A program made the translations under genes and the position numbers. A stretch of 64,000 nucleotides of DNA, taken from NCBI GenBank assembly GCA_000004695.1, contig CM000150.2, forward strand, positions 96,001 to 160,000, given 5' to 3'. Below, one piece after another: positions 1-64,000 of the stretch. The stretch is from Dictyostelium discoideum. Taxonomy: Eukaryota. Positions within the stretch are counted from its first letter, which is position 1. The number at the start of each line of letters is the position of its first letter. The notes below the pieces were generated by a model. The model was given only the letters and a program-made list of their open reading frames with translations. It was not told the DNA's origin and did no database searches.

Positions 1-163
1 TTGGTGTTGAAATGTCCATTTACATCATAAAATTGTTTATAAGAACGGTAATATGCAAGACAAAATGGACATATATTTTTATGCATAATATAATGAATAA
101 TAATATTTTTAAAATTCTTTAATTTTTCTCTGCAATTAATGCATGACATGTTATTTAAATTCA
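1..163 (-). CDS. N-terminal fragment (runs off window start) of a multicopy Cys-rich / C2H2-like zinc-finger protein family; ATG at 161-163; reverse complement of 62505-62665
   Basis: Reverse complement encodes MNLNN(I/M)SCINCREKLKNFKNIIIHYIMHKNICPFC..., near-identical to the N-termini at 62505 and 58825. Confidence 0.6.
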
Positions 164-179
164 TTTTGTTTGCTGGCTG

Positions 180-894
180 GAAATTAAAAATAATATTTTT
201 TTTTTTTTTTTCCTCGAGTTTTTACGTTTTTTTTTTTTTTTTTTTTTCATTTTATTCAAATTTTAGCATTTTAGCAAGTAGATATATGATTTAGTACTTA
301 GAATTTTATATTTAGAGGGATATACCCCATTTTCAAAAAATGACCGGGAACCTATGACCCTGTCTATACCTTTTTCTTTTTAAAATATTAAAAAAAAAAA
401 CTATAAAATCTGCCCAATTTATTGTAAAACTACACTAATGCAATAATATACATGTGCACTCGTTAATTGTTTATTAATTATAAAAAATAAAAAATAAAAA
501 ATCTTTTTTTATATGTATGTTTATACTTATAATATAAATATGAAAAACAAATAATTAAATTTTTTTTTTTTTTTTTTTGATATTTTTCGCTTTTTGAAAT
601 GAAAAGTAAAATTTAAAATAACATAATATAAAACCCAAGGCAATTGAAACACTTATTTATTATTAATTAATAAAAATAATAATAATAGAATTCAATTGCC
701 ACTGAAACAAATAAATAAAGAATTAAAATTACTTTGGTTATCTTTTTAGTTTTTTTTTTTTTTTAATTTTCATAATTTTTTTTTTTTTCTTTTATTTTCT
801 TATTTTTTTTTTTTTTTTAATAAATTTGAAATAAATAGTGTAAAAATTGATTTGAAATGTATTTAAAATGCATTTAAAATGTATTTTAAAAAAT
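180..894. repeat. Inverted copy of the upstream region found at 60866-62504, lacking the TIR element present at 61472-62373 (the empty site)
   Basis: Reverse-complement identity by eye, including poly-A/T runs; the TIR element and its TA duplication are absent here. Confidence 0.6.
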
Positions 895-1135
895 ATAATT
901 AATAAAAGCTTAAAAAAGGATTAATAAGTAATTTTAAATTACATTAAAAATAACTTTTTTAAATTTATTATAAAGTGATTAAAACATTATTTAAAAACCG
1001 CTTTATAATAAATTTAAAAGGTCATTTTTAATGTAATTTTAAATGACCTTAAAAATATCTTTAAAATTACCTTTTTAAAAAGCAAATTTTAAGCCAATTT
1101 AAAGTTGATTTAATGGTGTAATTTTCATCGCTGTG
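895..1135 (-). mobile_element. Fragment of TIR hairpin element (variant terminus ...CATCGCTGTG at 1135); homolog of the 59728-59995 palindrome arm
   Basis: Sequence identity to the 59740-59990 region; terminal CGCTGTG motif. Confidence 0.5.
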
Positions 1136-4078: not shown

Positions 4079-4130
4079 TTTCTAAGCTTTGACAATATCG
4101 CGTTTCTCGCCTAATGCATTATGTGCATGT

Positions 4131-5247: not shown

Positions 5248-5336
5248 AATTGGGTGACACCCATTAGAATTTCACGTAGCTCTATAGCTATTACAGTCAA
5301 TACTAACACTTCACAAAAAGGCCTGGTTAACCCCTA

Positions 5337-6644: not shown

Positions 6645-6693
6645 AAGAGATCCAGTTCTACCATTCTGGCGATGCTTGCTTGCCGATCAGTCA

Positions 6694-13263: not shown

Positions 13264-14344
13264 TTATATATCGTGGTATTTGTAAATTATAAGGTAATTG
13301 GTATCATCAATTTGAATTGGTATAACTATATTTAGAATACTATCATACGTAATATAATTTATTTGAAAGAAAATGGTATTGGTCACCAACATATTTGTCA
13401 AAATAATTTAATAATATTGAATGTTTTACTAGTTATCATCCATTTCAATCATTGATATTGAATTGATAATACCTGACCATCTACCTGAAAGTTCATTATA
13501 TGATGCAACTTCAACTGCATCACCAACATTGTATATTTCTTTATTATTTTTAATTGATGAGTGAAAAGTTAAATTTTTATAATTTTGAAATAATGAATCT
13601 AATTTAATTTTTATGTTATCTAAATTATCTGGATTTTTTATTTTATAATTAATGCTGTACTTTCAGGTTCAATACTTTTTAATTTAAAAAATTTCACCAT
13701 GTTTAATTTGGTAACCCTTTCATATTGTTCATCCCTATTATTTGTATTATTATTTAAATAATTTTTAATTCTTGATAATTGTGCTTCAAAAGTTTCAGCT
13801 TAAGTGTATTTTGGTGCACCCCAATTTTTTATATAGATTGGATAATATAACAACAAGTGGAAATTCGTTATTTCTGTTTCAGTAATTAAATTTACTTTTG
13901 CATTAAACGATTCAATTAATACTTGAAGTGAAATTAAATCATTTTCATCAAAGGAGTCACTATATAATTTAAAACATATAGTTACTAATTGTTCCATTAT
14001 TAAAAATCATCATTTGATATTTGATTTTTAATTGATATTAAAAGGTAATATAATATTGATCTATTCTCTCTTCCTTTCCTTGTTTTATTTGCAAATAGTG
14101 AAATTGATGGTTTTGGTTTATTATCTATTATTTTTGCATTTTTTAAATTATTTAAAAAATTTTCAATTTTTTTATTTTTATCAAAAATGTAATTTAAACA
14201 CCTTTGTGCGACACCTAATAAAATATGTCTGGTTGTGTTTTTAAATAATTAATGGACAAGGGTTCGACACCCTCTGTCCACACCTTTGATACCAATATCT
14301 TTTGCTTTTTTTTCCCATACTTTTTTTAATTCTATATCAGCATT
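13264..14344 (-). pseudogene. 3' part of a Cys-rich gene-family copy (continues from 17147-17460 across the DIRS-d insertion); frame broken
   Basis: Reverse complement matches 63860-64000 and downstream; GVDRGW(V/C)... region. Confidence 0.55.
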
Positions 14345-17146
14345 TATATTATCATATATATATATATATTATGAATAACATTTATTTATTTGAATTTCCC
14401 AAATATTTAAGATAATTTTTTAGAATGTTCTAGAAGAATAAAAAATTTTCGAAAGAAAAGTAAAAATTTCGAACCGGCACAATGACGCGATAATTGTTTA
14501 AGGTCGAAAAACTGAAAAATTCCGAACCGACACTATGCACAAAGTTGTGAAGGGTCGAAAACACTTATTTTTTTGAGTTTTGCGAAATTTTTAAGAAATA
14601 AAAACGTATAAATAGTGGCACTAAAAACTAAAAACAATTTGATTTATTTTATTTGGGAATTCCTCCTATATATATTTAAGATACACACACACACAAATTT
14701 TATACAAATAATTATTTCTCTTTATTAATTTTTAATATTATTATTTTTCTCATATTATATTTTTAGATATCAACAATAAAATATGTCTACCACTGTTAAT
14801 AATAATGAAGCCTCTAGTAGCAATACCTCTGCCTCTAATAGCGCTGAATCCTTTGATTTAAGAATGAAATCAATGGAGGTTCAAATCAACAACCTTTCCT
14901 TAGCCTTTACAAGATTCATGAAAGAACCTATGTTCTCTTCTAATACCAACTCACGTAGCCCACCTTCTCATGATCACTCTGACACCGAGAATGAACAAAG
15001 TGAAGATGAATCAAGTAACAATGTCGATGTTCCAACCGATTATCAATTATCCGATACCTTACTTGGTCAGGAATGTATCCTCAAGAAAGATGAGATATCC
15101 GAATTGAATAAAGTATTCAACTTTCCATCTAACTTCCAAGTGAACGTCGCTCCATTCGGTACACCTGAAGGTATTACTGTATCATCCAACGTCAAGAACA
15201 ATGATACTGACTTGTTGATTGTCGAAAAGCGAATCAACGATAGCTTAAAACCTTTGCTTCTCATGTCAAGTATGTTATCATCTGATAGCTCTAATGTCGA
15301 TGTAGAACTTATTAGTTACTTAACTCAGAGTGCAATCGTCTTAGCCTTTAATGCTCAAGCATCGCTTAGTCGTGTCCGTCGTAACAACATCGCTAAAGAA
15401 ATCTATGGTTCTGAAGTACTCTTACCAATTAAGATCAAGGATACACCAAAGATGTTTGATGAAACTGAAACTGAACGTGTAAGAAAACTAGCCAAGTCAA
15501 TCAGAAAGAACAACGAAGCTAAACAATCATTGTTAAAATTGAATTATCATTCCAAGTCAAATGTCAAGAAATCAGTTAACTCAAGTGGTAATAACACTAC
15601 AGGAAACAGTAGTAATAGTAAATCCAGTAGTGGGAGTAATGGCCGATCTAACAACTTCAATGGATCACCAAGTAATGTTGCATCAGGTAGCAACAATACC
15701 AAGTCTGTTTCCAAGTTACGACTATGTTCTTACAACCGATGCCTCGGAATCAGGTGCAGGTGCCACACTCAAGAAAGGAAACAAGGTAATCAAAACTTGG
15801 TCATTCCAATGGTCAACAACTCAATCAAATATGTAGTCAAATCGTCGAGAAATGCTCGCGCTGCTGATGGCCTATCAAGCGCTATGTCGGAAACTGAACA
15901 ACTGCAAGCTGAAGATTCAAACCGACAACACTACCACTCTCTCTTACATCAATCGCCAGGGTGGTCAAATACAAGATCTCTCAGTTCTGTTCGAACAACT
16001 TTGGAAACAATGCCTCAAGAAGAAAGTGAACTTGATTGGAGAGCATATTCCAGGATTCTTCAATGTAAAAGCCGACCACCTCAGCCGTCTTTCAGAGATG
16101 AATCACAAATCATCGTCCAGAGTAATCAAGAGTTACAACTGGCAACTGAAGAAGGAAGTGTTCAATCGCATCCAACTTCAATTCGGTCAAATACAGATGG
16201 ATCTGTTCGCATCTCACCTCAACCATCAAACGAACAACTACTCAACAATCAGAATGAATGCACTCCACCTCGATTGGAGTCAATGGAAGCAATGTCTAGC
16301 CTTCCCACCACCCATTCTTTTGCCTTCTATCCTGGAGAAGATGAACTCATCCAGTTCGAAGAAGGTTTCTATAATACTGATCTTCCCAATCTGGAGATCA
16401 GCAACTTGGTATCCGATGATTCAAGCACAAGTTCCTCGTCATCATCTTCACATGTTTCCTCAAGTACTGGGAACATTCCAAGAAGTATTGACCAAACAAT
16501 CAGTAGAGTCGATACCAATCCAGATTCAACAACGTTGGAAGCTGGGGATTATTCAACTTTCCAATCTCATGTAATGTCCTTCGCTCGTACAACAAATACA
16601 AAAACAGCTGAGCTGTTAATGAAGTCATGGGAACCTTCAACTCTCAAAGTATATAGCTCCAGTTATACAAGATTCCACAATTTCTGTACTTTGAACTCTT
16701 TGAATCCAGCCAACATTACCTTAGTTGTTTTCATGGATTATCTTACACATCTGTTCAAACACAAACCTCCGTTAGCCTTCTCAACAATTAACGGTCCCAA
16801 ATAAAATAAATCAAATTGTTTTTAGTTTTTAGTGCCACTATTTATACGTTTTTATTTTCTTAAAAATTTCGCAAAACTCAAAAAAATAAGAGTTTTCGAC
16901 CCTTCACAACTTTGTGCATAGTGTCGGTTCGGAATTTTTCAGTTTTTCGACCTTAAACAATTATCGCGTCATTGTGCCGGTTCGAAATTTTTACTTTTCT
17001 TTCGAAAATTTTTTATTCTTCGAATGTTCTAGAACATTCTAAAAAATTATCTTAAATATTTGGGAAATTCAAATAAATAAATGTTATTCATAATATATAT
17101 ATATATATTTAATATAAAATATAATTTAATAAATTAAATTTTTAAT
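14345..17146 (+). mobile_element. DIRS copy d, inserted without target duplication into the host gene-family copy; two internal deletions; right end is an inverted L-ITR
   Basis: Host sequence is exactly contiguous across the insertion (ctatatcagcattt | aattcagcataa). Confidence 0.8.
14783..16804 (+). pseudogene. 673-aa fusion ORF from deletion: ORF1 - RT overlap frame - N-terminal recombinase
   Basis: Comparison with copy b shows about a 1.1-kb deletion and loss of the recombinase catalytic half. Confidence 0.75.
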
Positions 17147-17460
17147 TTAATTCAGCATAATTTGGTTTGATGGAGTGAAAATTTGTAATGTCTTCTTGTT
17201 TTCTTAATGTACCTGATTTGCAAATATATAAACCATCTATTGGATTGTCACATGTGTGACATGCATATTCATTTGAATTATGTCCATTAAGTTTACACGA
17301 TGCTCTAAATTCTGGAATATCCATTGTTAGTCCAAACGGTACAACATCTATTTGTTCATTTTCAATAATTAAATTAAACCCATTACCAATAAAAGATGAA
17401 AACAATGCCTAATGGTTTAATGAAAATTAAGTAACCAATCATATGGTACTACAAATAATA
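17147..17460 (-). pseudogene. Middle part of the same Cys-rich gene-family copy (…ENEQIDVVPFGLTMDIPEFRASCKLNGHNSNEYACHTCD…AELN), cut at 17460 by the second TIR family
   Basis: ORF 17142-17405 is homologous to 57529-57700 and 63600-63860. Confidence 0.6.
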
Positions 17461-18188
17461 CACAGGGGCGAAAAAAAATACTTAAAAGCATCTTTAAAGT
17501 AGGAACGTAAATAGTACTATTATAAAGTATACTTAATAAGTATATTTATTAAGTATACTTATTAAGTGTACTTATTAAGTATATTTATTAAGTATATTTA
17601 TTAAGTATACTTATTAAGTATATTTATTAAGTATATTTATTAAATATATTTATTAAATATATTTATTAAGTATATTTATTAAGTATATTTAATAAGTATA
17701 TTTATTAAGTATATTTATTAAGTATATTTATTAAGCATAATTATTAAGTATAATTATAAAATATAATTATTAATTAAAATTATTAAGTATAATTAATAAG
17801 GGTAATTATAAAGTTCACTTAATAAGAATACTTAAAAAGTTAAAAATAACATTTTATAATAATAATTTAAAATAAATTTAAAAAAAAAAAAAAAAAAAAC
17901 TAAAAAAAAAAAAAAGAATTAATTAAAAAGTAAAGTATTTGAAATCAGAAATTTTTTTTATTTAATTGTGAAAATTCTAAGGGTATTAATATGTTGACTT
18001 TAACAAGGGTCATACAACATTTATAATTGACTAATTTGAAAAGCAGAACTTTATTTCCATTATTATTTGTACCAAAAGCATTTACTTTACAGGTTCAAAT
18101 AAAAGAAGGGACAACCTAAAATATAATTGTTTTTTAAATTATATTAATCTCTTTATTTTATATTATTATTTTTTTTTTTCTTTGAACC
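17461..18188 (+). mobile_element. Second TIR family, left arm: terminus CACAGGGGCGAAAAAAAATACTTAAAAGCATCTTTAAAGTAGGAACG, satellite, ~300-bp unique part
   Basis: Reverse complement of 47170-47768. Confidence 0.7.
17528..17810. repeat. 13-bp tandem satellite (TTAAGTATAYTTA)n inside the second TIR family arm
   Basis: More than 20 tandem units read directly; mirrored at 47400-47700. Confidence 0.8.
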
Positions 18189-44419: not shown

Positions 44420-45121
44420 CACAGCAAAGAAAAATGCACCTTTAAAGCAAATTTAAAGTAAAGTTGATTTAAATTGGATTTAAATTGAATTTAAAGCCGC
44501 GTTTAAAAAATTCATTTTTAAGGTAATTTTTAAGGTAATTTTTAAGATATTTAAAAATGCCTTTAAAATTTGCTTAAAAATTTATTTTAAAGGTAATTTT
44601 AAAGGTGATTTTTAAGGTAATTTTTAAAATGATTTTTAAGATATTTAAAAATACCTTTAAAATTTATTTTAAATTAATTTTAAATAGGATTTAAAGTAGA
44701 TTTAAAGTAGATTTAAAGTGAATTTAAATTTCCTTAATATATAAATTTAAGGTTTTTAATAAAAAAGATCTAATTATAGATAAAAAAAATGGGGATAAAA
44801 TATTCTATCATTTTTAAATTTTCATCAAAGCAATCAAATGGTCGGGGGATCGAATCCCTTTTGGTAATTTTTGAAAAAATTAAAAAAAAAAAATTTAAAA
44901 AATTTATCCGTTAAATAACGGCTTCGAACTCAGGACCTCGCTTTTAAAGCGATTAAAAAGGTAATTTTAAAGGTAATTTTAAAGGTAATTTTAAAGGTGA
45001 TTTTAAAGTAACCTTAAAAATTACCTTTCAAATTACCTTTAAAATTGCTTTAATTCAGGACTTTAAAGCAAATTTAAATTTAATTTAAAGCGAATTTAAA
45101 GGTGGTTTTTTCTTTGCTGTG
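44420..45121 (+). mobile_element. TIR hairpin element (B-end to A-end), complete
   Basis: CACAGCAAAGAAAAATGCACC ... GGTGGTTTTTTCTTTGCTGTG. Confidence 0.75.
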
Positions 45122-45470
45122 AAATATTTTGCTTTTTTTTTTTTTTTTTTTTTTTTATTATTTTTTTTTACCAACACATAACGACTCTTCCTTACTTATA
45201 ATATATAAGCAAATAACATTAAAAAAATTGTTAAATTATTTACATAACTTTTACGTAAAAACGAACGGATTTTTATTTTTATTTTTATTTTTTTTCAATT
45301 TTTTTTTTTTTTGTTTCGGTTATTATTTTTCAGACTTAAATTATTATTTATAAATTAAATATAAAAAATAATATTGCATCATCTGGAAATGGTAATTATT
45401 TAAATTGATATTATCCAACTTCGCTTATTTTAAATAAAAATGAAACTGCACTAAATCAAAACTGGTAAGG

Positions 45471-46024
45471 TAAGATGATTTTTAAGGTAATTTTTAAGAT
45501 AATTTTTAAGATATTTAAAAAATACCTTTAAAATTTATTTTAAATTAATTTTAAATAGGATTTAAAGTAGATTTAAAGTATATTTAAAGTGAATTTAAAT
45601 TTCCTTTAAGTATAAATTTAAGGTTTTTAATTAAAAAGATCCATTTTTAGATCAAAAAAATGGGGATAAAATATTCTACCATATTTAAATTTTCATCAAA
45701 GCAATCAAATGGTGTAATGGTTGATGAGACTATCCTTTGATAGAGGGTCGGGGGATCGAATCCCTTTTGGTAATTTTTGAGAAATTAAAAAAAAAAATTT
45801 TAAAAAATTTATCCGTTAAATAACGGCTTCGAACCCAGGACCTCGCTTTTAAAGCGATTAAAAAGGTAATTTTAAAGGTAATTTTAAAGGTAATTTTTAA
45901 GGTGATTTTAAAGTAACCTTAAAAATTACCTTTAAAATTACCTTAAAAATTGCTTTAATTCAGGACTTTAAATTCGCTTTAAATTAAATTTAAATTTGCT
46001 TTAAAGGTGGTTTTTTCTTCGCTG
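45471..46024 (+). mobile_element. TIR hairpin element, 5'-truncated; its A-end terminus ends 2 bp from the stop codon of the adjacent gene paralog
   Basis: ...GGTGGTTTTTTCTTCGCTGTG at 46004-46024. Confidence 0.7.
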
Positions 46025-46026
46025 TG

Positions 46027-46745
46027 TTAATGCCGATTTTTTTCATTTTTTGTTTTGTTTCTAATTTTATTTTGAGGATTTGAAAAATCTTGTTTATTTG
46101 GTTTTGAATTGTGAAAGTCAATAATATCTTTTTGATTTCTAAAATTTCCTTCTTTTAATAAATAATCGACACCTCTTGGTTTATCACATGTATGACATGA
46201 GAAATCATTGCAATTATAATGGTTAATCCTACAAGATGATCTAAATTCTGTTATATGCATTGTTAATCCATATGGTATAATTTCATAATCATTTTCATTA
46301 TTATCTTTAATTTTTAATTTATTATTAAATTGCGCTGAAAATAATTTTTTAATTGTTTGATGTATATTGTGAAACCATTCTTTTGGAACAATAAAAAAAA
46401 CAATTTTATTATTTTTAAAAAATGGACCAACATAATTTTCAAAATCTACCAATAATGTATAATCTGATCTACCTTGATGACTCATTCCTTCACTAAATAT
46501 TCTTAATAAAATAAATTTATATAAAATTGAATTTTTTATTTTATTAAACTGTTCTCCAGATTTATAATTTTTATAAATACCTTGCTCATAGTCTTTTGAG
46601 AAATCTAAATATTCTAAAAAATTTTTTTTTTCAATTAATAATTTAACAACTGAATAAATTTCAAAATAAAAAATTGACTCTTCATTTGTAACTCAAAAAG
46701 TGACCATCGATAGGTAAATTTGCTAAAAATATAGAATCCATACAC
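46027..46745 (-). pseudogene. Diverged paralog (~45% identity, C-terminal domain only) of the Cys-rich gene family; in-frame stops near the N-terminus; bounded on both sides by outer TIR ends
   Basis: ORF 46027-46485 (…PYGLTMHITEFRSSCRINHYNCNDFSCHTCDKPRG…) plus upstream MDSIFLANLPIDGHFLSYK*. Confidence 0.5.
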
Positions 46746-46775
46746 AGCGAAGAAAAAACCACCTTAAAAGCAAAT
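46746..46775 (+). mobile_element. Solo TIR terminus (ACACAGCGAAGAAAAAACCACC) abutting the ATG of the paralog
   Basis: Read directly. Confidence 0.55.
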
Positions 46776-47768
46776 TTAATCTAAAAAAAAAACAAAAAAA
46801 GTATTATTTTAGATTTCTTCAACTTCATCAATAATATCAATGCTTTCAAAACCAATCACCAGTTCTTTTAAAATAAATTGATACTACAATTAAATAATAG
46901 CTGGTAAGTTAATATAATTTTTTTTTAAAAAAAAAAAAAATTAAAAAAAAAAAAAAAATAAATAATAATAATAAAATAAAATAGATAGACTAATTTGAAA
47001 AATAATAATTATATTTTAGGTTACCTTTCTTATTATACCAACAACCACTTCTTTTCAATCAAATTGATACTTCACTTATATAATAACTGGTAAGTCAATA
47101 TAATTTTTTTTTTTTAAAAAAAAAATAATAATATAAAATAAAGAGATTAATATAATTTAAACAATTATATTTTAGGTTGTTTCTTCTTTTATTAGAACCT
47201 GTAAAGTAAATGCTTTTGGTACAAATTATAATGGAAATAAAGTTCTGCTTTTCAAATTAGTCAATTATAAATGTTGTATTACCATTAAATAAAAAAAATT
47301 TCTGATTTCAAATACTTTTACTTTTTAATTAATTCTTTTTTTTTTTTTTTTTTTTTTAAATTTATTTTAAATTATTATTATAAAATGTTATTTTTAATTT
47401 TTATTTTTAAGTATTCTTATTAAGTGAACTTTATAATTACCCTTAATAATTACCCTTATTAATTATAATTAATAATTCCACTTAATAGTTATACTTAATA
47501 ATTATACTTAATAATTTTAATTATTAATTATATTTTATTATTATACTTAATAATTATGCTTAATAAATATACTTTTTAATTATACTTAATAAATATACTT
47601 AATAAATATACTTTTTAATTATACTTATTAATTATACTTAATAAATATACTTAATAATTATACTTAATAATTATACTTAATAAATATACTTATTAAGTAT
47701 ACTTAATAATAGTACTATTTACGTTCCTACTTTAAAGATGCTTTTAAGTATTTTTTTTCGCCCCTGTG
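46776..47768 (-). mobile_element. Second TIR family, right arm (tandem ~200-bp units with GTAAGT...TTTTAG intron-like boundaries, satellite 47400-47700, terminus ending CCCCTGTG at 47768)
   Basis: Reverse complement of the 17461-18188 arm. Confidence 0.65.
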
Positions 47769-48740: not shown

Positions 48741-48989
48741 GTGGAATTCTATAGACCCTATTACCAGAAATACGACCACGGAAGATCTTGGTTCGCAACG
48801 CGTTTGCTGAAGTGGTTCACACACAACTATCCAACAGCGGTGATTGATGTGGTTAAGTCCGTGGCCCTGGTTCTTGTTAAACATCGCGATTTGATTGGTA
48901 ACCCATCATTCATTGACACAGAGTGGTTTTTGGATGGTGAGTGTTTGCGTCATCTTAATAACGCACTGGTCATGGAAAACGAACCGGTT
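48741..48989 (+). CDS. Phage-like gene truncated by insertion of DIRS copy l
   Basis: ORF 48741-49025 reads from GC-rich sequence into the ITR. Confidence 0.35.
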
Positions 48990-51900: not shown

Positions 51901-52782
51901 CTAAAGAACAAAGAAGTGGTGTTGTTTCAATATTAGAATTAACTTCGTTAGATGATACAAACTCTCAAGTGTGCCCTGTTCGCCACCTTGCAACATACCT
52001 TAGAGCCTCTAAAGGAAGAAGAAAGCCCCATTCGGGTGACCCTGTCTTTATTAAGAATGAGGGTGAACCGCTCCAAGTTAATGATATTAACTCAATTGTA
52101 CTATCAACGCTCTCAAAGTCAGGCATTGATATTGTCAAGTTCAAATCTCACTCTACCCGTTCCGCTATGGCTTCTCTGCTGTTGTCCAATAACGTTCCGT
52201 TCCACGTTGTCAAGAAGATGGGTCGTTGGAAATCAAACGATACTGTAGATTCCTTCTACGATAAAAGAATCATTGGTGAAAAATCTGGTGGTTTCTTAAA
52301 TACTGTCGTCCAAATTTCATAATATATATATATATATGATAATATAAATTAAAAATTTAATTTATTAAATTATATTTTATATTAAATATATATATATATA
52401 TTAGTCCCATCCCACCCGCCCTTAGTCGGAATTCCATAAATCAAATTGTTTTAGTTTTTATTGCCACTATTTATACGTTTTTATTTTCTTAAAAATTTCG
52501 CAAAACTCAAAAAAATAAGTGTTTTCGACCCTTCACAACTTTGTGCATAGTTTCGGTTCAGAATTTTTCAGTTTTTCGACCTTGTGCAATGATCGCGTCA
52601 TTGTGCCGGTTCGAAATTTTTACTTTTCTTTCGAAAATTTTTTTTATTCTTCGAATGTTCTAGAACATTCTAAAAAATTATCTTAAATATTTGGGAAATT
52701 CAAATAAATAAATGTTATTCATAATATATATATATATATTTAATATAAAATATAATTTAATAAATTAAATTTGTAATTAAAC
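48990..52782 (+). mobile_element. DIRS copy l: both ITRs; internal deletion fusing ORF1 in frame to RT (637-aa ORF 49444-51357); recombinase ORF 49890-52322 intact
   Basis: LLVEE|GIKNLPSMVKQ junction compared with copy b. Confidence 0.85.
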
Positions 52783-55990: not shown

Positions 55991-56083
55991 TTATATTACC
56001 CATCTGTTCAAGCACAAACCTCCGTTAGCCTTCTCAACAATTAACGGTCATCGATCAATGTTGAATCAGTTGTTACTCCTTAG
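55991..56083 (+). mobile_element. ~93-bp fragment of the DIRS recombinase ORF (…HLFKHKPPLAFSTINGHRSMLNQLLLL…) embedded in phage-like island E
   Basis: Near-identity to DIRS sequence; shares the ttcaaGcac variant with the adjacent copy l. Confidence 0.7.
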
Positions 56084-56506: not shown

Positions 56507-56615
56507 AGGAAAGACATTCTATGCCATATACAACATGTTCAAACTGCAGAAGCTCACTGGCATTATGTTAATGCCGAAGTACATCACGACTTGGCATACT
56601 GGCTTACATGACTTT

Positions 56616-57334
56616 CACAGCGAAGAAAAAACCACCTTTAAAGCAAATTTAAAGCAAATTTGATTTAAATTGGATTTAAATTGAATTTAAAGCCGCGTTT
56701 AAAAAATTCATTTTTAAGGTAATTTTTAAGGTAATTTTTAAGATATTTAAAAATGCCTTTAAAATTTGCTTTAAATTAAATTTTTAAGCAATTTTTAAGG
56801 TAATTTTTAAGGTGATTTTTAAGATAATTTTAAGATATTTTAAAAATACCTTTAAAATTTATTTTAAAGTAATTTTAAAGAAGATTAAAAGTAGATTTAA
56901 AGTGAATTTAAATTTCCTTTAAACATAAATTTAAGGTTTTTAATAAAAAAGATCTAGTTTTAGAACAAAAAAATGGTGATAAAATATTCTATCATTTTTA
57001 AATTTTTCATCAAAGCAATCAAATGGTGTAATGGTTGATGAGACTATCCTTTGATAGAGGGTCGGGGGATCGAATCCCTTTTGGTAATTTTTGAAAAAAT
57101 TAAAAAAAAAATTTAAAAAATTTATCCGTTAAATAACGGCTTCGAACTCAGGACCTCGCTTTTAAAGCGATTAAAAAGGTAATTTTAAAGGTAATTTTAA
57201 AGGTAATTTTAAAGGTAATTTTAAAGTAACCTTAAAAATTACCTTTAAAATTACCTTTAAAATTGCTTTAATTCAGGACTTTAAAGCAAATTTAAATTTA
57301 AAGCGAATTTAAAGGTGGTTTTTTCTTCGCTGTG
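56616..57334 (+). mobile_element. TIR hairpin element, complete (B-end to A-end)
   Basis: CACAGCGAAGAAAAAACCACC ... GGTGGTTTTTTCTTCGCTGTG; tRNA-like hairpin core 57020-57100. Confidence 0.75.
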
Positions 57335-57528
57335 AAAAGATAATAATTTAATAAACTTTAAATGTTTTTTGAAAAAACACATTTAGGGTCAGTGATTTTT
57401 TTTTTCACTGCGCTACTGTAGTGAAATTAAATAATAAAATTAACTACGCTACTGTAGTGAAATTTTATTGAAAATTCCCTACAACAATTTGGTTTGGTTG
57501 AGTGAAAATTTGTAATATCATCTTGTTT

Positions 57529-58825
57529 TCATAATGTACCTGATTGGCAAATAAATAAACCATCTCTTGGCTTGTCACATGTGTGACATGAATATTCATT
57601 TGAATTATGTCCATTAAGTTTACACGATGCTCTAAATTCTGGAATATCCATTGTCAGTCCCAACGGTACAACATCTATTTGTTCGTTTTCAATAATTAAA
57701 TTAAAGCCAATACCAATAAAAGATGAAAACAATGTCATAATGGTTTGATGAAAATTAAGTAACCAATCATTTGGTACTACAAATAATAATAATTTATTGT
57801 TTTTAAATTCATTTCCAATATAATTTTCTATATCCAGCATTATAGAATAATCTTTCTTGTATTGACACCGCATACTATCAGTGAATATTCTAAGTAAAAC
57901 AATTTTATTTTTATTTTTATTTTTCGAATCTTTAAATTGTTGACCACTTTTATAATTTGTATAAATTCCAGTTTCAAAATGTGTATCAAAATCAATTCTA
58001 TTAAAAAATTGCTTTTTATTCAATAAAGTTTCTAATACTTTTTTAATTTCAAAATAAAAAATTGAGTGATCATAATTTTTATTTATAAATGTTTCTCCTT
58101 TTATTTGAAAATTTTCCATAAATAATTTATCCATATATAGAGGTGTGTATCTTATTAGATTTAAATTAGTTTATTTTTGTCAATAAAACTTTTAAATTTT
58201 TCAAGTAGCTTTAAACTTATTGAGTTTTCAATTCCCAACATTAAAAATTCAATTTCAGTTTCATTTAATTTTTTTTTGATTTTTTATTATCTAAATTATT
58301 ATTTTGATTATTATTTATTGGTTCATTTTGACCATTTTCATTATTTTCATTATTTTCATTATTTTTTGCTCCATTTTGATCTATTATATTTTCATCATCA
58401 CTATGTCGCAACCTAATTGTATCATGATTTTCTTCATTATCAATTGTTTGATTGTTTTCATTATTTTCATTATTTTCTTGATAAATAATTTCATCTTGGT
58501 TTTGGTTACATAAATGTTTACATGGGTCATCTATATCATTTGTTGGATATTTTATTTTTTCACCAGTAATATCCATTGATTTTTTATAAAAGCTATCTCT
58601 TTTTGGATTATTTGTAATAATTTTACTTTGTTCATTTTTACATTTTTTGGTGTTGAAATGTCCATTTCCATCATAAAATTGTTTATAAGAACGGTAATAT
58701 GAAAGACAAAATGGACATATATTTTTATGCATAATATAATGAATAATAATATTTTTAAAATTCTTTAATTTTTCTCTGCAATTAATGCATGATATGTTAT
58801 TTAAATTCATTTTGTTTGCAGTCAA
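57529..58825 (-). pseudogene. Cys-rich / zinc-finger-like gene-family copy; a 9-versus-10 A-run difference at about 58140-58260 shifts the frame
   Basis: ORFs 58265-58825 (N-terminal zinc finger and acidic NEN repeats) and 57529-58134 (C-terminal domain) are collinear with the open reading frame at 62505-64000. Confidence 0.55.
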
Positions 58826-58901
58826 ATGACCTATCAGTGAATAATTGAATTAATTATAATTAACTCAGCATATTTTAAAAAAGATGGAGTTATCCTAGAA
58901 A

Positions 58902-59472
58902 TCACAGCGAAGAAAAAACCACCTTTAAATTCGCTTTAAATTAAATTTAAATTTGCTTTAAAGTCCTGAATTAAAGCAATTTTAAAGGTAATTTTAAAGG
59001 TAATTTTTAAGGTTACTTTAAAATTACCTTTAAAATTACCTTTAAAATTACCTTTTTAATCGCTTTAAAAGCGAGGTCCTGAGTTCGAAGCCGTTATTTA
59101 ACGGATAAATTTTTTAAATTTTTTTTTTTAATTTTTCAAAAATTACCAAAAGGGATTCGATCCCCCGACCCTCTATTAAAGGATACTCTCATCAACCATT
59201 ACACCATTTGATTGCTTTGATGAAAAATTTAAAAATGATAGAATATTTTATCCCCATTTTTTTGTCTAAAATTAGATCTTTTTTTATTAAAAACCTTAAA
59301 TTTATTTTAAAGCGATTAAAAAGGTAATTTTAAAGGTAATTTTTAAGGTGATTTTAAAGTAACCTTAAAAATTACCTTTAAAATTACCTTAAAAATTGCT
59401 TTAATTCAGGACTTTAAATTCGCTTTAAATTAAATTTAAATTTGCTTTAAAGGTGGTTTTTTCTTCGCCGTG
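58902..59472. mobile_element. TIR hairpin element with A-type ends on both sides, starting 77 bp upstream of the gene start at 58825
   Basis: CACAGCGAAG... and ...CTTCGCCGTG termini. Confidence 0.7.
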
Positions 59473-59727
59473 CTTAAAAATCACCTTTAAAATAAACTTT
59501 AAAATGACCTTGAAAATTACCTTTAAAATTATCTTTAAAATGACCTTTAAAATTACCTTTAAAATGCTCTTTAAAATTAAGTTTAAAATGCCCTTTAAAA
59601 TTAACTTTATAATGCTCTTTAAAATTACTTAAAAATATGATTAAAAATTATATTAATAATTACATTTTAAAGTTCCTTAAAAATTGAATTTTAAAGTTTA
59701 TTAATAATTACATTAAAGCACCTTACA
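59473..59727. repeat. Tandem ~20-bp repeats (ACCTTTAAAATNNN)
   Basis: Read directly. Confidence 0.6.
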
Positions 59728-60240
59728 CAGCAAAGAAAAATGCACCTTTAAAGCCAATTTCAAGCAAATACAATTTAAATTTGCTTTAAATTGGCTTTAA
59801 ATTTGCTTTTTAAAAAGGTAATTTTAAGGATATTTTTAAGGTCATTTAAAATTACATTAAAAATGACCTTTTAAATTTATTATAAAGCGGTTTTTAAATA
59901 ATGTTTTAATCACTTTATAATAAATTTAAAAAAGTTATTTTTAATGTAATTTAAAATAACTTATCAATCCTTTTTTAAGCTTTTATTACACAGCAAAGAA
60001 AAAACCACCTTTAAATTCGCTTTAAATTAAATTTAAATTTGCTTTAAAGTCCTGAATTAAAGCAATTTTAAAGGTAATTTTAAAGCGAATTTAAAGGTGG
60101 TTTTTTCTTTGCTGTGTAATAAAAGCTTAAAAAAGGATTGATAAGTTATTTTAAATTACATTAAAAATAACTTTTTTAAATTTATTATAAAGTGATTAAA
60201 ACATTATTAAAACCGCTTATAATAATTAAAAGGCATTTTA
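59728..60240. repeat. Imperfect palindrome (~130-250-bp arms) centred on a mini TIR element (59989-60116)
   Basis: Flanks aagcttttatta | taataaaagctt are reverse complements. Confidence 0.7.
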
Positions 60241-60865
60241 TGTAATTTAAGACCTAAAAATCCTAAATACCTTTTTAATGGCTTTAAAAGCGAGGTCCTG
60301 AGTTCGAATCCGTTATTTACGAATAATTTTTTAAATTTTTTTTTTATTTTTCAAAAATTACCCAAAAGGGATTCGATCCCCCGACCCTCTATCAAAGGGT
60401 AGTCTCATCAACCATTACACCATTTGATTGCTTTGATGAAAAATTTAAAAATGATAGAATATTTTATCCCCATTTTTTTGTGCTAAAATTAGATCTTTTT
60501 TATTAAAAACCTTAAATTTATGTTTAAAGGAAATTTAAATTCACTTTAAATCTACTTTTAATCTACTTTAAATCCTATTTAAAATTAATTTAAAATAAAT
60601 TTTAAAGGTATTTTTAAATATCTTAAAAATTATCTTAAAAATTACCTTAAAAATCACCTTTAAAATCACCTTTAAAATCACCTTTAAAATTGCTTAAAAA
60701 TTTATTTTAAAGCAAATTTTAAAGGCATTTTTAAATATCTTAAAAATTACCTTAAAAATTACCTTAAAAATGAATTTTTTAAACGCGGCTTTAAATTCAA
60801 TTTAAATCCAATTTAAATCAACTTTTCTTTAAATTTGCTTTAAAGGTGCATTTTTCTTTGCTGTG
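60241..60865 (-). mobile_element. TIR hairpin element (B-type terminus at 60845-60865), left side merging into the palindrome
   Basis: Reverse-orientation internal modules; terminus GGTGCATTTTTCTTTGCTGTG. Confidence 0.65.
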
Positions 60866-61471
60866 TAATTATATTTTTTAAAATACATTTTAAATGCATT
60901 TTAAATACATTTCAAATCAATTTTTACACTATTTATTCCAAATTTATTAAAAAAAAAAAAAAAAAATAAGAAAATAAAAAAAAAAAAAAAAATTAAGAAA
61001 ATTAAAAAAAAAAAAAACTAAAAAGATAACCAAATTAATTTTAATTCTTTATTTATTTGTTTCAGTGGCAATTGAATTCTATTATTATTATTTTTATTAA
61101 TTAATAAAAAATAAGTGTTTCAGTTGCCTTGGGTTTTATATTATTTTATTTTAAATTTTACTTCTCATTTCAAAAAGCGAAAAATATCAAAAAAAAAAAA
61201 AAAAAAATTTAATTATTTGTTTTGCATATTTATATTATAAGTATAAACATACATATAAAAAAAGATTTTTTATTTTTTATTTTTAATAATTAATAAACAA
61301 TTAACGAGTGCACAGGTATATTATTGCATTAGTGTAGTTTTACAATAAATTGGGCAGATTTTATAGTTTTTTTTTTAATATTTTAAAAAGAAAAAGGTAT
61401 AGACAGGGTCATAGGTTCCCCGTCATTTTTTGAAAATGGGGTATATCCCTCTAAATATAAAATTCTAAGTA

Positions 61472-62373
61472 CACAGCAAAGAAAAATGCACCTTTAAAGC
61501 AAATTTAAAGAAAAGTTGATTTAAATTAGATTTAAATTGAATTTAAAGCCGCGTTTAAAAAATTCATTTTTAAGGTAATTTTTAAGGTAATTTTTAAGAT
61601 ATTTAAAAATGCCTTTAAAATTTGCTTTAAAATAAATTTTTAAGCAATTTTAAAGGTGATTTTAAAGGTGATTTTAAAGGTAATTTTTAAGGTAATTTTT
61701 AAGATAATTTTTAAGATATTTAAAAATACCTTTAAAATTTATTTTAAATTAATTTTAAATAGGATTTAAAGTAGATTTAAAGTAGATTTAAAGTGAATTT
61801 AAATTTCCTTTAAACATAAATTTAAGGTTTTTAATAAAAAAGATCTAATTTTAGAACAAAAAAATGGTGATAAAATATTCTATCATTTTTAAATTTTTCA
61901 TCAAAGCAATCAAATGGTGTAATGGTTGATGAGAATACCCTTTGATAGAGGGTCGGGGGGATCGAATCCCTTTTGGTAATTTTAGAACAAAAAAATGGTG
62001 ATAAAATATTCTATCATTTTTAAATTTTTCATCAAAGCAATCAAATGGTGTAATGGTTGATGAGACTATCCTTTGATAGAGGGTCGGGGGATCGAATCCC
62101 TTTTGGTAATTTTTGAAAAATTAAAAAAAAAAATTTAAAAAATTTATCCGTTAAATAACGGCTTCGAACTCAGGACCTCGCTTTTAAAGCGATTAAAAAG
62201 GTAATTTTAAAGGTAATTTTAAAGGTAATTTTAAAGGTAATTTTAAAGGTAATTTTAAAGTAACCTTAAAAATCACCTTTAAAATTACCTTTAAAATTGC
62301 TTTAATTCAGGACTTTAAAGCAAATTTAAATTTAATTAAAAGCGAATTTAAAGGTGGTTTTTTCTTCGCTGTG
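61472..62373 (+). mobile_element. TIR hairpin element, complete, with TA target duplication (61470-61471 and 62374-62375) and an internal ~125-bp tandem duplication of the tRNA-like core
   Basis: The empty site (gatttagTActtagaa) is present in the inverted paralogous copy at about 286-300. Confidence 0.8.
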
Positions 62374-62504
62374 TACTAAATCATATATCTACTTTCTATA
62401 ATGCTAAAATTTGAATAAAATGAAAAAAAAAAAAAAAAAAACGTAAAAACTCGAGGAAAAAAAAAAAAAAAAATATTATTTTTAATTTCCAGCCAGCAAA
62501 CAAA

Positions 62505-64000
62505 ATGAATTTAAATAACATATCATGCATTAATTGCAGAGAAAAATTAAAGAATTTTAAAAATATTATTATTCATTATATTATGCATAAAAATATATGT
62601 CCATTTTGTCTTGCATATTACCGTTCTTATAAACAATTTTATGATGTAAATGGACATTTCAACACCAAAAAATGTAAAAATGAACAAAATAAAATTATTA
62701 CAAATAATCAAAAAAGAGATAGCTTTTATAAAAAATTAATGGATATTACTGGTGAAAAAATAAAATATCCAACAAATGATCCAGATGACCCATGTAAACA
62801 TTTATGTAACCAAAACCAAGATGAAATTTTTTATCAAGAAAATAATGAAAATAATGAAAATAATCAAACAATTGATAATGAAGAAAATCATGATATAATT
62901 GGGTTGGTACATAGTGAAGATGAAAACAATGAAATTAGAATAGATGAAAATGAAGCAAACATTAATAATGAAAATAATGAAAATAATGAAAATGAAAATG
63001 CTCAAAACGAACCAATAAATAATAATCTAAATAATAATTTAGATAATGAAAAATCAAAAAAAAAATTAAATGAAACTGAAATTGAATTTTTAATGTTGGG
63101 AATTGAAAACTCAATAAGTTTAAAGCTACTTGAAAAATTTAAAAGTTTTATTGACAAAAATAAAACCAATTTAAATCAAATAAGATACACACCTCAATAT
63201 ATGGATAAATTATTTATGGAAGATTTTCAAATAAAAGGAGAAACATTTATAAATAAAAATTATGATCACTCAATTTTTTATTTTGAAATTAAAAAAGTAT
63301 TAGAAACTTTATTAAATAAAAAGCAATTTTTTGAAAGAATAGATTTTGATACAGATTTTGAAACTGGAATTTATACAAATTATAAAAGTGGTCAACAATT
63401 TAAAGATTTAAAAAATAAAAATAAAAATAAAATTGTTTTACTTAGAATATTCACTGATAGTATGCAGTGTCAAAACAAGAAAGATTATACTATAATGCTG
63501 GATATAGAAAATTATATTGGAAATGAATTTAAAAATAATAAATTATTATTATTTGTAGTACCAAATGATTGGTTACTTAATTTTCATCAAACAATTAGGG
63601 CATTGTTTTCATCTTTTATTGGTAATGGCTTTAATTTAATTATTGAAAATGAACAAATAGATGTTGTACCGTTTGGACTGACAATGGATATTCCAGAATT
63701 TAGAGCATCGTGTAAACTTAATGGACATAATTCAAATGAATATGCATGTCACACATGTGACAAACCAAGAGATGGTTTATTTATTTGCAAATCAGGTACA
63801 TTAAGAAAACAAGAAGATATTACAAATTTTCACTCCAACAAACCAAATTATGCTGAATTAAATGCTGATATAGAATTAAAAAAAGTATGGGAAAAAAAAG
63901 CAAAAGATATTGGTATCAAAGGTGTGGACAGAGGGTGGGTCGAACCCTTGTCCATTAATTATTTAAAAACACAACCAGACATATTACATAATATTTTATT
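62505..64000 (+). CDS. Cys-rich / C2H2-like zinc-finger protein of the multicopy family, open to the window end (at least 498 codons): N-terminal CxxC...HxxxH finger, acidic NEN repeats, C-terminal domain with CKLNGHNSNEYACHTCDKPRDGLFIC
   Basis: Manual translation from the ATG at 62505 without a stop; absent from the ORF track because no stop lies in the window. Confidence 0.6.
   Translation, partial: MNLNNISCINCREKLKNFKNIIIHYIMHKNICPFCLAYYRSYKQFYDVNGHFNTKKCKNEQNKIITNNQKRDSFYKKLMDITGEKIKYPTNDPDDPCKHLCNQNQDEIFYQENNENNENNQTIDNEENHDIIGLVHSEDENNEIRIDENEANINNENNENNENENAQNEPINNNLNNNLDNEKSKKKLNETEIEFLMLGIENSISLKLLEKFKSFIDKNKTNLNQIRYTPQYMDKLFMEDFQIKGETFINKNYDHSIFYFEIKKVLETLLNKKQFFERIDFDTDFETGIYTNYKSGQQFKDLKNKNKNKIVLLRIFTDSMQCQNKKDYTIMLDIENYIGNEFKNNKLLLFVVPNDWLLNFHQTIRALFSSFIGNGFNLIIENEQIDVVPFGLTMDIPEFRASCKLNGHNSNEYACHTCDKPRDGLFICKSGTLRKQEDITNFHSNKPNYAELNADIELKKVWEKKAKDIGIKGVDRGWVEPLSINYLKTQPDILHNIL

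Follow-up and report, generated by a model that had tools for sequence, protein, structure and literature searches.

The genes of a Cys-rich zinc-finger family scattered through this part of the Dictyostelium discoideum genome were found next to the terminal inverted repeats (TIRs) of transposable elements, with one of them, copy C, fitting precisely between two outward-facing ends. The question raised by this locus is whether such genes are targets of the TIR elements, cargo carried between them, or genes that themselves encode the protein of a mobile element. The window, that is, the whole stretch of 64,000 nucleotides analysed, is a D. discoideum transposon graveyard of the DIRS-1/DDT, centromere type, and the neighbours of the genes are DIRS-like RT and tyrosine-recombinase genes. 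The gene is very probably the transposase of the autonomous D. discoideum DDT DNA transposons, its pieces having reached TIR ends through nested insertions, and the family is neither a host family nor cargo. The proposal of the preliminary description that the gene may be the protein-coding part of an uncharacterised mobile element was essentially right as regards the mobile element, with its own TIRs, 2-bp target duplications, and a DDE transposase, but not as regards its novelty, since the element is already known and fits the DDT elements. The coordinates and distances given in that description are all correct.

With at most one mismatch allowed, the window contains 15 occurrences of the terminal motif ACACAGCGAAG compared to 0.41 expected from shuffles, none of 100 shuffles reaching 15, and a scan with a 27-nt version of the motif located 20 termini. 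In the aligned terminus copies one side of CACAG is conserved and the other is unrelated, which identifies them as true outer ends; all termini begin with CACAG, bar a few degenerate exceptions. The loci used for comparison (L001-L006) were drawn from the assemblies GCA_054859385, GCA_054883475, and GCA_054859235, these extra loci having been picked because the gene was present. In related loci, inward-facing CACAG TIRs, flanked in turn by 2-bp target duplications, enclose an intact gene together with a second ORF. A complete autonomous element is ~5.0-5.6 kb long and comprises the CACAG... TIRs, the transposase gene, a second gene of ~275 aa, and subterminal arrays of 11-13-bp repeats (three examples are listed in Table 1). 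The annotated range of ORF2 includes introns. A 2-bp target duplication, with GG, TG, and AG among those found, is present in ~25 of the 31 independent complete pairs, and the third base also matches in only one complete pair. The autonomous element thus makes 2-bp duplications when it moves, and the N-terminal zinc fingers of its transposase may bind the subterminal repeats.

The full-length transposase consists of ~815-830 residues, and its close protein relatives (715-865 aa) are all D. discoideum hypothetical proteins. Two subfamilies are present, ~44-50% identical to each other, which are presumably DDT-A and DDT-B. The family is multi-copy and includes many decayed fragments; in the profile search, the matches at E < 1e-30 were without exception family members or fragments thereof, and strong matches came from D. 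discoideum or D. cf. discoideum only. The C2H2-like finger noted before at the N terminus is real, the region containing C2H2/C2HC-type zinc fingers, but the Cys/His cluster that had been assigned to the C terminus lies in the middle of the protein (aa ~395-420 of 831) and includes the C(2)C motif. A PDB sequence search with P0006 gave no meaningful match. Direct Pfam scans of the window ORFs, the full-length relatives, and the 15 members of the family alignment returned merely sub-threshold zinc-finger noise, and PF02992 was matched directly by none of these 15 members, even at E <= 10.

Distant relatives were found by the profile search, and four of them (P0063, P0078, P0087, and P0102) carry PF02992 Transposase_21 (tnp2), with scores of 32-39 bits against a gathering cut-off of 28.6; the cut-off for DUF1258 is exceeded as well by one of them. 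The comparison with transposase profiles that had been suggested earlier gave a match to tnp2-type transposases: hhalign of the DDT proteins (alignment A1, 15 members, shallow, with Neff about 1.5) with the PF02992-carrying relatives (A2) yielded a probability of 99.5%, with E = 1.5e-22 over 526 columns. The catalytic core residues, in P0006 numbering, are D310, D387, C407-x2-C410, H612-x3-H616, and E636. Residues D310, D387, and E636 align with D326, D414, and E680 of P0078, invariant in A2, and the motifs C407-H-T-C410 and H612-LLL-H616, kept in at least 90% of A1, align with the invariant C433/C436 and H656/H660 of A2. The CACAG termini conform to the 5'-CA(C)...(G)TG-3' pattern of CACTA/Mirage/Chapaev (CMC) elements, and the 2-bp target duplication lies within their range of 2-5 bp. 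On the evidence of these alignments, the DDT transposase can be placed in the CMC clade of DDE transposases, also CMCT clade. There is no direct Pfam match, and the link between DDT and CMC runs through the intermediate family.

DDT elements resemble CMC elements in the CAC... termini, in a target duplication that is short, 2 bp as reported for some CMC elements, and in the arrays of short subterminal repeats, and they resemble CACTA elements in the presence of a second ORF beside the transposase. They differ in having CACAG rather than CACTA termini, in a kinship seen through profiles only and not by a direct PF02992 match, and in the N-terminal C2H2/C2HC fingers and Asn-rich linker, which are specific to the DDT lineage. 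According to a 2017 review, the transposases of DDT elements are unlike any known transposase, whereas a clear kinship with CMC is seen here; no published link between DDT and CMC was found in the literature searched.

The S elements are ~720 bp long, have no ORF, and have their terminal ~27-30 nt in common with the autonomous element. As in systems of MITEs and autonomous partners, the short non-coding member shares these terminal nucleotides and the target-duplication length with the coding element, but S carries a tRNA-like A/B-box module that is missing from the autonomous elements examined. This module was not called by ARAGORN or Rfam, and Rfam gave for S only sub-threshold hairpin matches to models of MITE-derived miRNAs. 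S elements would be mobilised in trans by the DDT transposase. S and other DDT elements repeatedly insert into resident DDT copies, for reasons that we infer rather than observe. Whatever part of a gene remains between two insertions of this kind necessarily has outward-facing termini on both sides, and later deletions, inversions, and fragment captures scramble the pieces. Nested clusters elsewhere, such as the nested insertions of maize, likewise have younger elements inside older ones and old pieces bounded by outward-facing ends. Three S elements lie within a subfamily-2 element in L002 and four within a subfamily-1 element in L006, where an S at 15219-15978 interrupts the coding sequence and gene sequence is present on either side of it. 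For the subfamily-1 element of L006 (3719-11642), simple insertion into a gene of subfamily 2 was considered and rejected, the flanks being TG vs TA with no clean duplication.

Table 1. Positions of transposase gene copies, S elements, and DDT element parts (window coordinates unless a locus is named; rc, reverse complement)
Feature	Position	Strand	Length	Description
Subfamily-1 5' end, empty-site reference	1..1135	-		TIR at 1135, ATG at 161; without S insertions
Decayed gene fragment	6-161	-		Within subfamily-1 5' end 1..1135
Decayed fragment	13270..14356	-		C-terminal part of subfamily-1 transposase gene, aa 441-819 (tblastn)
Decayed fragment	17145..17476	-		Transposase aa ~315-445; cut by subfamily-2 element terminus starting at 17461 (+)
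Complete S	44420..45121	+	702 bp	88% identity to reference S, full length; target duplication AA; flanks ...ataaa/CACAG...CTGTG/aaata
Host element of copy C, left part	45123..45470	+		Subfamily-2 DDT, gene end to ORF2 start
5'-truncated S	45471..46026	+		S positions 182-720; 91% identity to reference S; 3' terminus ...CTTCGCTGTG adjoins copy C
Copy C (flagged)	46028..46742	-		Dead internal fragment of subfamily-2 transposase gene, aa ~207-455 of 715-aa P0018
S 5'-end stub	46743..46779	+	37 bp	S positions 2-38; 97% match; similarity stops at 46779; adjoins other side of copy C
Host element of copy C, right part	46780..47768	+		ORF2 region, 13-bp subterminal tandem repeats (family D1), 3' terminus ...CGCCCCTGTG at 47768
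Complete S, reference copy	56616..57334 (aligned as 56615-57335)	+	719 bp	3' end toward copy A
Copy A	57336..58901	-		Subfamily-1 transposase pseudogene, aa 1-439, two ORFs (tblastn, translation)
S derivative	58903..59472	.	570 bp	S 3'-type terminus at both ends; inverted repeat I15
Copy-B element, 5' TIR and subterminal region	59726..59988	+		Subfamily 1; terminus at 59726; continues in reference copy at window 931-862 rc
Nested S	59989..60865	-		At TA in 5' region; internal snap-back duplication of own end and flank
Copy-B element, 5' internal region	60866..61471	+		Between two nested S insertions
Nested S with internal duplication	61472..62373	+		131 bp upstream of copy-B ATG; TA target duplication
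Copy B	62374..64000	+		Canonical leader, then intact transposase ORF starting with ATG at 62505 and still open at window end after 498 codons
Complete element	L001 9218-14251		5034 bp	Target duplication TG; second gene downstream
Complete element	L003 8979-14558		5580 bp	Target duplication AA; second gene downstream
Complete element	L005 7978-14222			Target duplication TA; second gene downstream

Nesting can be followed step by step in the element that carries copy B, whose leader is 88% identical to L001 9873-10006 and whose protein is 96% identical to P0001. The terminus described 131 bp upstream of its start is indeed there, ending at 62373/62374. The filled site, AAGTA/CACAG...CTGTG/TACTAAATC, has as its empty counterpart AAGTACTAAATC in the reverse complement of window positions 330-260 (paralogous, 295/296); with its TA duplication and a paralogous empty site in the same window, the S at 61472-62373 is therefore a nested insertion. 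The S lying farther upstream has TA at both flanks and contains a palindrome; the paralog at window 931-862, which is uninterrupted, served as the reference for its junctions. The internal region between the two is 97% identical to window positions 901-295 (minus strand) and matches L001 9472-9845 and L003 9232-9848. Two independent S copies contain the same kind of inverted, snap-back duplication, comprising the terminus together with the flank outside it. The 128-bp 'mini-MITEs' at 5612-5739 and 59989-60116, taken as independent insertions, were rejected, as their outside flanks are mutually reverse-complementary. The idea that the gene family is a preferred target of TIR elements holds in part and in a trivial sense, one filled site and its empty site in the window showing that S inserts into DDT copies, but this is nesting within the elements' own family, and it has already been reported.

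Copy C had been described as a paralog, but it is not a complete one, covering residues ~207-455 of a protein of 715-818 aa. Its 'ATG' (46739-46741, minus strand), adjoining ACACAGCGAAG at 46742, is an internal Met, residue 207 of P0018, and its stop is due to a frameshift, the minus-strand ORF extending over 46027..46485 with TAA at 46027-46029; the plus-strand CTTCGCTGTG(T) ends next to this stop, at 46026/46027. The copy is 91% identical to residues 229-435 of P0018 (tblastn) and 89.6% identical over 734 bp to L004 10615-11348 (blastn), with the match ending exactly at 46028 and 46745. Both catalytic D residues and C(2)C are kept, but H(3)H is missing, as is the catalytic E. S(182-720) is followed by the inverted gene fragment and then by S(2-38), an inside-out order that lies inside the ORF2 region of another element. 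The left part of this host matches L005 21774-22119 (80%), L002 12230-12475, and L004 12447-12611, and the right part matches the ORF2 regions of L005 and L004, as well as the 3' subterminal region of L004. The statement that the family sits exactly at outer TIR ends applies to copy C; it does not extend to the other copies, as only copy C abuts the termini exactly.

For copy A, described as the gene at 57529-58825 with TIR ends 195 bp and 77 bp away, both termini were confirmed: one is at 57334/57335, with the 3' end of the gene 194-195 bp away, and the other at 58902/58903, with the TTG start (58825) at a distance of 77 bp. Unrelated filler occupies both ends of the copy (57336-57489 and 58825-58901), and at 14 bp before the ATG its leader diverges from the canonical sequence. 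Neither of the S-type elements on its two sides has a target duplication: the reference S is flanked by TT vs AA, and none was found in the flanks of the S derivative. The outermost TIR pair, for which a check of target duplications had been suggested, likewise has none (TT vs CT). An inversion by S/S recombination around copy A was considered as a source of the missing duplications and discarded, since the predicted flank exchange does not fit (TT/AA, AT/CT). Copies A and C are not fully accounted for by simple nesting and call for additional steps of rearrangement. Decayed copies are scattered through the cluster, as had been noted (6-161, 13270-14356, and 17145-17476). Six of the ten gene-fragment ends lie at most 160 bp from a terminus, as close as only ~9% of the window (binomial P ~1e-4).

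The names DDT-A, DDT-B, and DDT-S, which we take to be those of Glockner et al. 2001, are applied here to the subfamily-1/2 and S elements. The autonomous elements most likely correspond to DDT-A/DDT-B, judging by size, organism, genomic context, and the account of Glockner et al. 2001 rather than by a sequence match, and the ~720-bp S elements are probably DDT-S on a similar basis. The share of DDT in the whole genome is about 1%. In the centromeres of D. discoideum, published DDT elements account for ~20% of the sequence, and they cluster with one another and are nested inside DDT-rich regions (PMC2665215); DDT-A, DDT-B, and DDT-S are also cited in PMC5633606. The elements of the window come from the same organism and are likewise putative DNA transposons in DIRS-rich centromeric clusters, self-nested and accompanied by a short non-coding member. 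Two of the autonomous elements, 5034 and 5580 bp long, are similar in size to the DDT-B consensus of 5471 bp (PMC9012585). Rearranged fragments that join a terminus to inverted internal sequence are also common to both, as in the published DDT-B fragment '428-1+3291-1646' (PMC9012585). In this comparison, made by description and not by consensus sequence, no contradiction was found.

Several other explanations of the gene copies at TIR ends have to be weighed against nesting. Copy A lies between two S-type elements in inverted orientation (56616-57334 and 58903-59472), the gene in L002 has S on both sides, and TTATT is found at each flank of an inverted S pair in L002 (8043-9599), so that S pairs may sometimes co-move; two S elements could in this manner mobilise the gene as cargo of a composite transposon, like the IS pair in Tn10. 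However, the distance from S to the gene is inconstant (0, 77-96, 102, 131, ~370, and ~400 bp), and S elements face copy A with their 3' ends but the L002 gene with their 5' ends. The outer termini of the bracket around copy A have no duplication, and around copy C such termini are absent altogether, one of its S neighbours being 5'-truncated and the other a stub. The S upstream of copy B inserted independently and has a duplication and an empty site of its own, and intact genes have their own TIRs. The composite arrangement, proposed in the preliminary description, thus found no support; it is already largely refuted and extremely unlikely. Equally unlikely is a host zinc-finger gene family used as a preferred landing site by unrelated TIR elements, a reading to which the real C2H2-like finger, the UniRef label 'C2H2-type domain-containing protein' of one family member, the lack of a transposase domain directly detected by Pfam, and the landing of TIR elements in and near the gene would lend themselves. 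Element anatomy already refutes it, the gene lying within its own TIRs with target duplications, and its many decayed copies, the restriction of the E < 1e-30 matches to the family itself and of strong matches to D. discoideum and D. cf. discoideum, and the alignment of the DDE core, its C(2)C and H(3)H motifs included, to tnp2-type transposases all speak against a host family.

The odd junctions and palindromes might also be assembly artefacts, that is, long-read mis-joins in a repeat-rich region, and the palindrome around 5612-5739 has perfect arms (277/277 bp), as fold-back chimeric reads give. This is very unlikely, since all three comparison assemblies contain loci with the same patterns of nesting, the same termini, and the same target duplications, the arms of the second palindrome have diverged (102/110), and copy C differs by 9-10% from its relatives and is therefore an old sequence rather than a chimera of recent copies. 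Aberrant action of the transposase, rather than insertion followed by random decay, could have produced the exact junctions of copies A and C, as well as the snap-back palindromes, with reversed-ends or sister-chromatid alternative transposition and self-integration as candidates. Reversed-ends transposition is a mechanism described for maize Ac/Ds. The position of copy A between two inverted S 3' ends, with both S elements lacking a duplication, is expected from such transposition with inversion, and the inside-out order around copy C, the inverted duplications of terminus and outside flank in two S copies, and the rearranged DDT-B fragment mentioned above (PMC9012585) point the same way. However, a search across rearranged partners revealed neither a diagnostic reciprocal junction nor a matching 2-bp duplication, the flank exchange predicted for an S/S inversion does not fit, and such structures are explained equally, with no need of a transposase, by recombination between dispersed S elements, fragment capture at breaks, and fold-back repair. 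Aberrant action, which would complement nesting and not replace it, is rather unlikely. We can speculate, with a similar degree of reserve, that the DDT transposases form a deep amoebozoan branch of CMC unrecognised in the open literature and that the odd structures are aberrant transposase footprints actively remodelling centromeres.

Beside the ordinary nesting of DDT elements in one another, the CMC assignment and the odd rearrangements are minor extras. The genes that seemed mysteriously linked to transposon ends encode the transposase of the transposon itself, and its short relatives have broken them into pieces by inserting into them. Such nesting is normal in Dictyostelium centromeric repeat clusters, and the finding is an ordinary one. 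Its main value lies in the clarification, with by-products useful for the annotation of dictyostelid genomes: many D. discoideum gene models labelled 'hypothetical protein' or 'C2H2-type domain' are transposase fragments, for which masking is advisable. Other by-products are a family with a strict 2-bp target duplication and CACAG termini, and catalytic residues named by the CMC assignment (D310, D387, and E636 in P0006), which are open to mutation.

Within the window, the 11-mer ACACAGCGAAG occurs 15 times with at most one mismatch, compared to 0.41 occurrences expected from shuffled sequences, none of which reached 15, and a 27-nt version of the motif marks 20 termini. When all CACAG copies are aligned in the same orientation, their 3' sides are conserved for more than 100 nt and their 5' sides differ from copy to copy, so the motif is the genuine outer end of a repeated element. 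Six of the ten gene-fragment ends in the window lie no more than 160 bp from such a terminus, whereas only ~9% of the window does (binomial P ~1e-4), which argues against chance. [quoted passage not shown] On one side of the flagged copy (copy C, 46028-46742, minus strand), direct reading of the sequence places the end of the + strand terminus ...GGTGGTTTTTTCTTCGCTGTG at 46026, with the minus-strand ORF 46485..46027 closing in a TAA at 46027-46029; on the other side, the minus-strand ATG codon occupies 46739-46741, followed by ACACAGCGAAGAAAAAACCACC at 46742.

Full-length proteins of the family comprise 715-865 aa and form two subfamilies, with 78-96% (subfamily 1, P0002-P0006) and 41-45% identity (subfamily 2, P0018-P0022) to the query from copy B. 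The latter is open for 498 codons from 62505, running past the end of the window, and every protein-database relative is a hypothetical protein from Dictyostelium discoideum or D. cf. discoideum. Copy C, taken earlier for a paralog with its own ATG and stop, belongs to subfamily 2 (91% identity to P0018 over aa 229-435); its DNA is 89.6% identical over 734 bp to a homologous locus (L004 10615-11348), the match ending exactly at 46028 and 46745. Since its "start" MDSIFLANLPIDG is an internal stretch of P0018 (...TKYMDSIFLANLPIDG, about aa 207), the P0018 sequence ...KLETEQKMKKIGIT is broken off at its far end by the terminus, after IGIT, and its stop is produced by a frameshift, copy C is a dead piece from inside the gene. 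Copy A (57336-58901, minus strand) spans aa 1-439 and is broken into two ORFs. In addition, a single decayed transposase gene is split into aa 441-819 and aa 358-445 by ~2.8 kb at 14357-17144; this insert has no recognizable CACAG terminus and is probably a different element.

Nine loci with family members, from three D. discoideum / D. cf. discoideum assemblies, were compared. In three of them (L001, L003, and L005), intact copies lie inside inward-facing termini, so the gene supplies the coding capacity of a TIR transposon; in L001 the transposase gene (10001-12549) is accompanied by a second gene (12676-13630). The ends of these autonomous elements are of the same family as those of S, the short non-coding TIR element; the copy-B element begins at 59726 with 27 nt that several S copies also have, unchanged, at their own 5' ends. 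A matching dinucleotide is found on both flanks in ~25 of 31 independent complete terminus pairs, including GG, TG, and AG, and the third flank base also matches in only one pair; the target duplication is 2 bp. Internally deleted, non-coding subfamily-2 derivatives of ~2.5 kb (L005 3656-6148, L007 9926-12381 and 12516-15057) each carry CACAGGGGCG termini with a target duplication of 2 bp.

Coordinates of elements (S copies complete or partial) and gene fragments in the window and in homologous loci (L-numbers)
Feature	Coordinates	Strand	Length	Duplication	Remarks
S copy	4130-4761
S copy	5612-6645
S copy	44420-45121
S copy	45471-46026				3' end adjoins copy C
S copy	46743-46779				adjoins other side of copy C
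S copy (reference)	56616-57334
S copy	58903-59472
S copy	59989-60865
S copy	61472-62373
A-box/B-box module of S	45708-45765; also near 6158, 44840, 57060, 59152, 60368, 62082
Gene fragment	6-161
Gene fragment	13270-14356				aa 441-819
Gene fragment	17145-17476				about aa 358-445
Copy C host, left part	45123-45470	+			gene end to ORF2 (second gene) start
Copy C host, right part	46780-47768	+			ORF2, 13-bp subterminal repeats, terminus ...CCCCTGTG
L001 element	9218-14251		5034 bp	TG	inward-facing CACAGCAATG... termini
L003 element	8979-14558		5580 bp	AA	layout as L001
L005 element	7978-14222		6245 bp	TA	subfamily-2 gene between CACAGGGGCG... termini

The preliminary description had offered three readings of the association: that the genes encode part of a mobile element, that they are its preferred target, or that they are cargo of a composite transposon. 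The first is borne out by the intact genes within their own TIRs and 2-bp duplications. For copy B, the neighbouring S ends can be accounted for directly. The 131 bp between an S end (62373) and its ATG form a canonical leader, 88% identical to L001 9873-10006, and the 606 bp on the far side of this S (60866-61471) are the canonical upstream region, matching L001 9472-9845 and L003 9232-9848. The same 5' region occurs once more at 901-159 (minus strand, 96-97% identity), there uninterrupted, and provides the empty site AAGTACTAAATC; comparison with the filled site AAGTA/CACAG...S...CTGTG/TACTAAATC reveals duplication of TA at the insertion of S 61472-62373. The S at 59989-60865 is also inserted at a TA of the 5' region, and the element's own 5' TIR lies upstream of it. 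Thus, on the basis of its canonical flanks, TA sites, and own TIR, copy B is an autonomous element into whose 5' part two S elements have inserted.

Nesting recurs elsewhere: an S element with a TA duplication lies within the coding region at L006 15219-15978, the gene resuming on either side; a subfamily-2 element in L002 contains three S elements and a subfamily-1 element in L006 contains four; at window position 17461, a subfamily-1 gene fragment is cut by a subfamily-2 terminus. DNA left between two neighbouring insertions would, by definition, be flanked by outward-facing termini, so gene pieces at TIR ends follow the pattern of nesting. The genes are therefore a preferred target only in the trivial sense that S elements do insert in copies of this transposon, copy B among them, and the cargo reading fails because the intact gene belongs to its own TIR element.

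Simple nesting is nevertheless insufficient for copies A and C. Copy C is hosted by the 3' portion of a subfamily-2 element; the two pieces of this portion are nearly contiguous in homologs and are separated here by S(182-720), the inverted gene fragment, and S(2-38). The arrangement is inside-out, with the host touched by internal positions of S and the gene fragment by S termini; most simply, the block is part of an earlier locus in which a gene piece lay between two S elements, and was captured by or recombined into another element. Both S-type elements adjoining copy A lack a target duplication (flanks TT/AA and AT/CT), and its leader is swapped for an unrelated 77-bp repeat from position -14. 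Such structures could arise by alternative transposition, by S/S recombination, or by break repair. The same kind of junction, terminus to inverted interior, occurs in the published DDT-B fragment "428-1+3291-1646" (PMC9012585).

The reference S copy (56615-57335) is 721 bp long, is bounded by a CACAG terminus at either end, and contains no ORF reaching 80 aa; most of its length consists of TTTAAAGGTAA-like subterminal repeats of 11-12 bp that run in both directions. A tRNA-like module with an A box and a B box (TGGTGTAATGGT ... GGTCGGGGGATCGAATCCC) is present in all S copies; it is absent from the full-length elements of L001, L004, and L009 and gave no tRNA call with ARAGORN or Rfam. TRE5-A retrotransposon integration has been reported on the upstream side of an A/B-box motif of "DDT-B" (PMC9012585). 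The long hairpin of the S 3' region (44967-45054, 45872-45947) matches MITE-derived miRNA precursor models of Rfam only below threshold (mir-548 and mir-3938, 38-40 bits versus the 90-94 needed); small RNAs derived from a DNA transposon were reported for thug-S in Dictyostelium (PMC4894637).

A Pfam scan of the family proteins gave no direct match. A profile built from 15 members and run against 1.8 billion representative proteins retrieved, besides the family itself, distant relatives at E = 1e-8 to 1e-3, and PF02992 (Transposase_21) exceeded its gathering score in four of the ten scanned; one of these four also exceeds the DUF1258 cut-off, and one is from the thrips Frankliniella fusca. PF02992 is tnp2, the CACTA transposase family. 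Profile-profile comparison of the family with the PF02992-bearing relatives yielded 99.5% probability and E = 1.5e-22 over 526 columns. Residues of P0078 that are invariant in the PF02992-bearing family correspond to those of P0006, a full-length family member, in the motifs LLRIFSD (D310 in P0006, D326 in P0078), LTMD (D387, D414), CHTC (C407 and C410, C433 and C436), FHLLLH (H612 and H616, H656 and H660), and TFE (E636, E680). The literature gives this residue set, together with CA/CAC termini and 2-5-bp duplications, as the signature of the CACTA/Mirage/Chapaev(/Transib) clade (PMC12730594; PMC6004678). The Cys/His cluster previously placed at the C terminus contains the C(2)C motif and is located mid-protein, and the N-terminal C2H2-like finger was recognized correctly, as CxxC-x12-H-x3-H and CxxC...H...C fingers are present, though below Pfam thresholds.

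The gene family belongs to a type of transposon that is already known, seen here in its ordinary nested condition. Three DNA transposon families, Tdd, DDT, and thug, are described in D. discoideum; DDT accounts for 0.9% of the genome; it forms ~20% of the centromeres and clusters with its own kind (PMC2665215), and the DDT-B consensus is 5471 bp long (PMC9012585). The elements are probably DDT-A, DDT-B, and DDT-S, which they fit in size, organism, presence of a short non-coding member, and genomic context. DIRS-like reverse transcriptase and tyrosine-recombinase genes are neighbours of the family elements. A 2017 review stated that DDT transposases resemble no known transposase, and our literature search found no paper connecting DDT to the CACTA/Mirage/Chapaev clade; the assignment may thus be new to the open literature, although curated repeat databases may already have it.

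Several other repeats were observed nearby. Two minus-strand S copies (5335-6016, 59879-60226) contain an inverted duplication of their own 38-bp 3' terminus together with DNA outside the element, with arms perfect over 277/277 bp in one and matching at 102/110 in the other; each resembles a 128-bp mini-element with palindromic flanks. Since the outside flanks differ, the two represent independent events or a systematic fold-back mechanism, or they may be an assembly artefact. A tRNA-Leu(TAA) gene (5158-5247, minus strand) lies ~90 bp from the 277-bp arm, near two S copies; Dictyostelium TRE retrotransposons target tRNA genes. In L003, the 22 bp flanking a 5'-type terminus at 6776 on its outer side recur, as their reverse complement, just beyond the 3' terminus at 14558, another inverted duplication of terminus and flank. 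In L002 (8043-9599), two inverted S elements 39 bp apart have TTATT on both outer sides, and each also has its own TT duplication; joint movement is possible, yet not required. A DIRS-1-like retrotransposon at 48989-52755 is bounded by inverted terminal repeats of 320 bp (95% complementary) and contains an RT/RNase H ORF overlapping one of tyrosine-recombinase type; a 98-nt stretch of it is repeated at 55986-56083.
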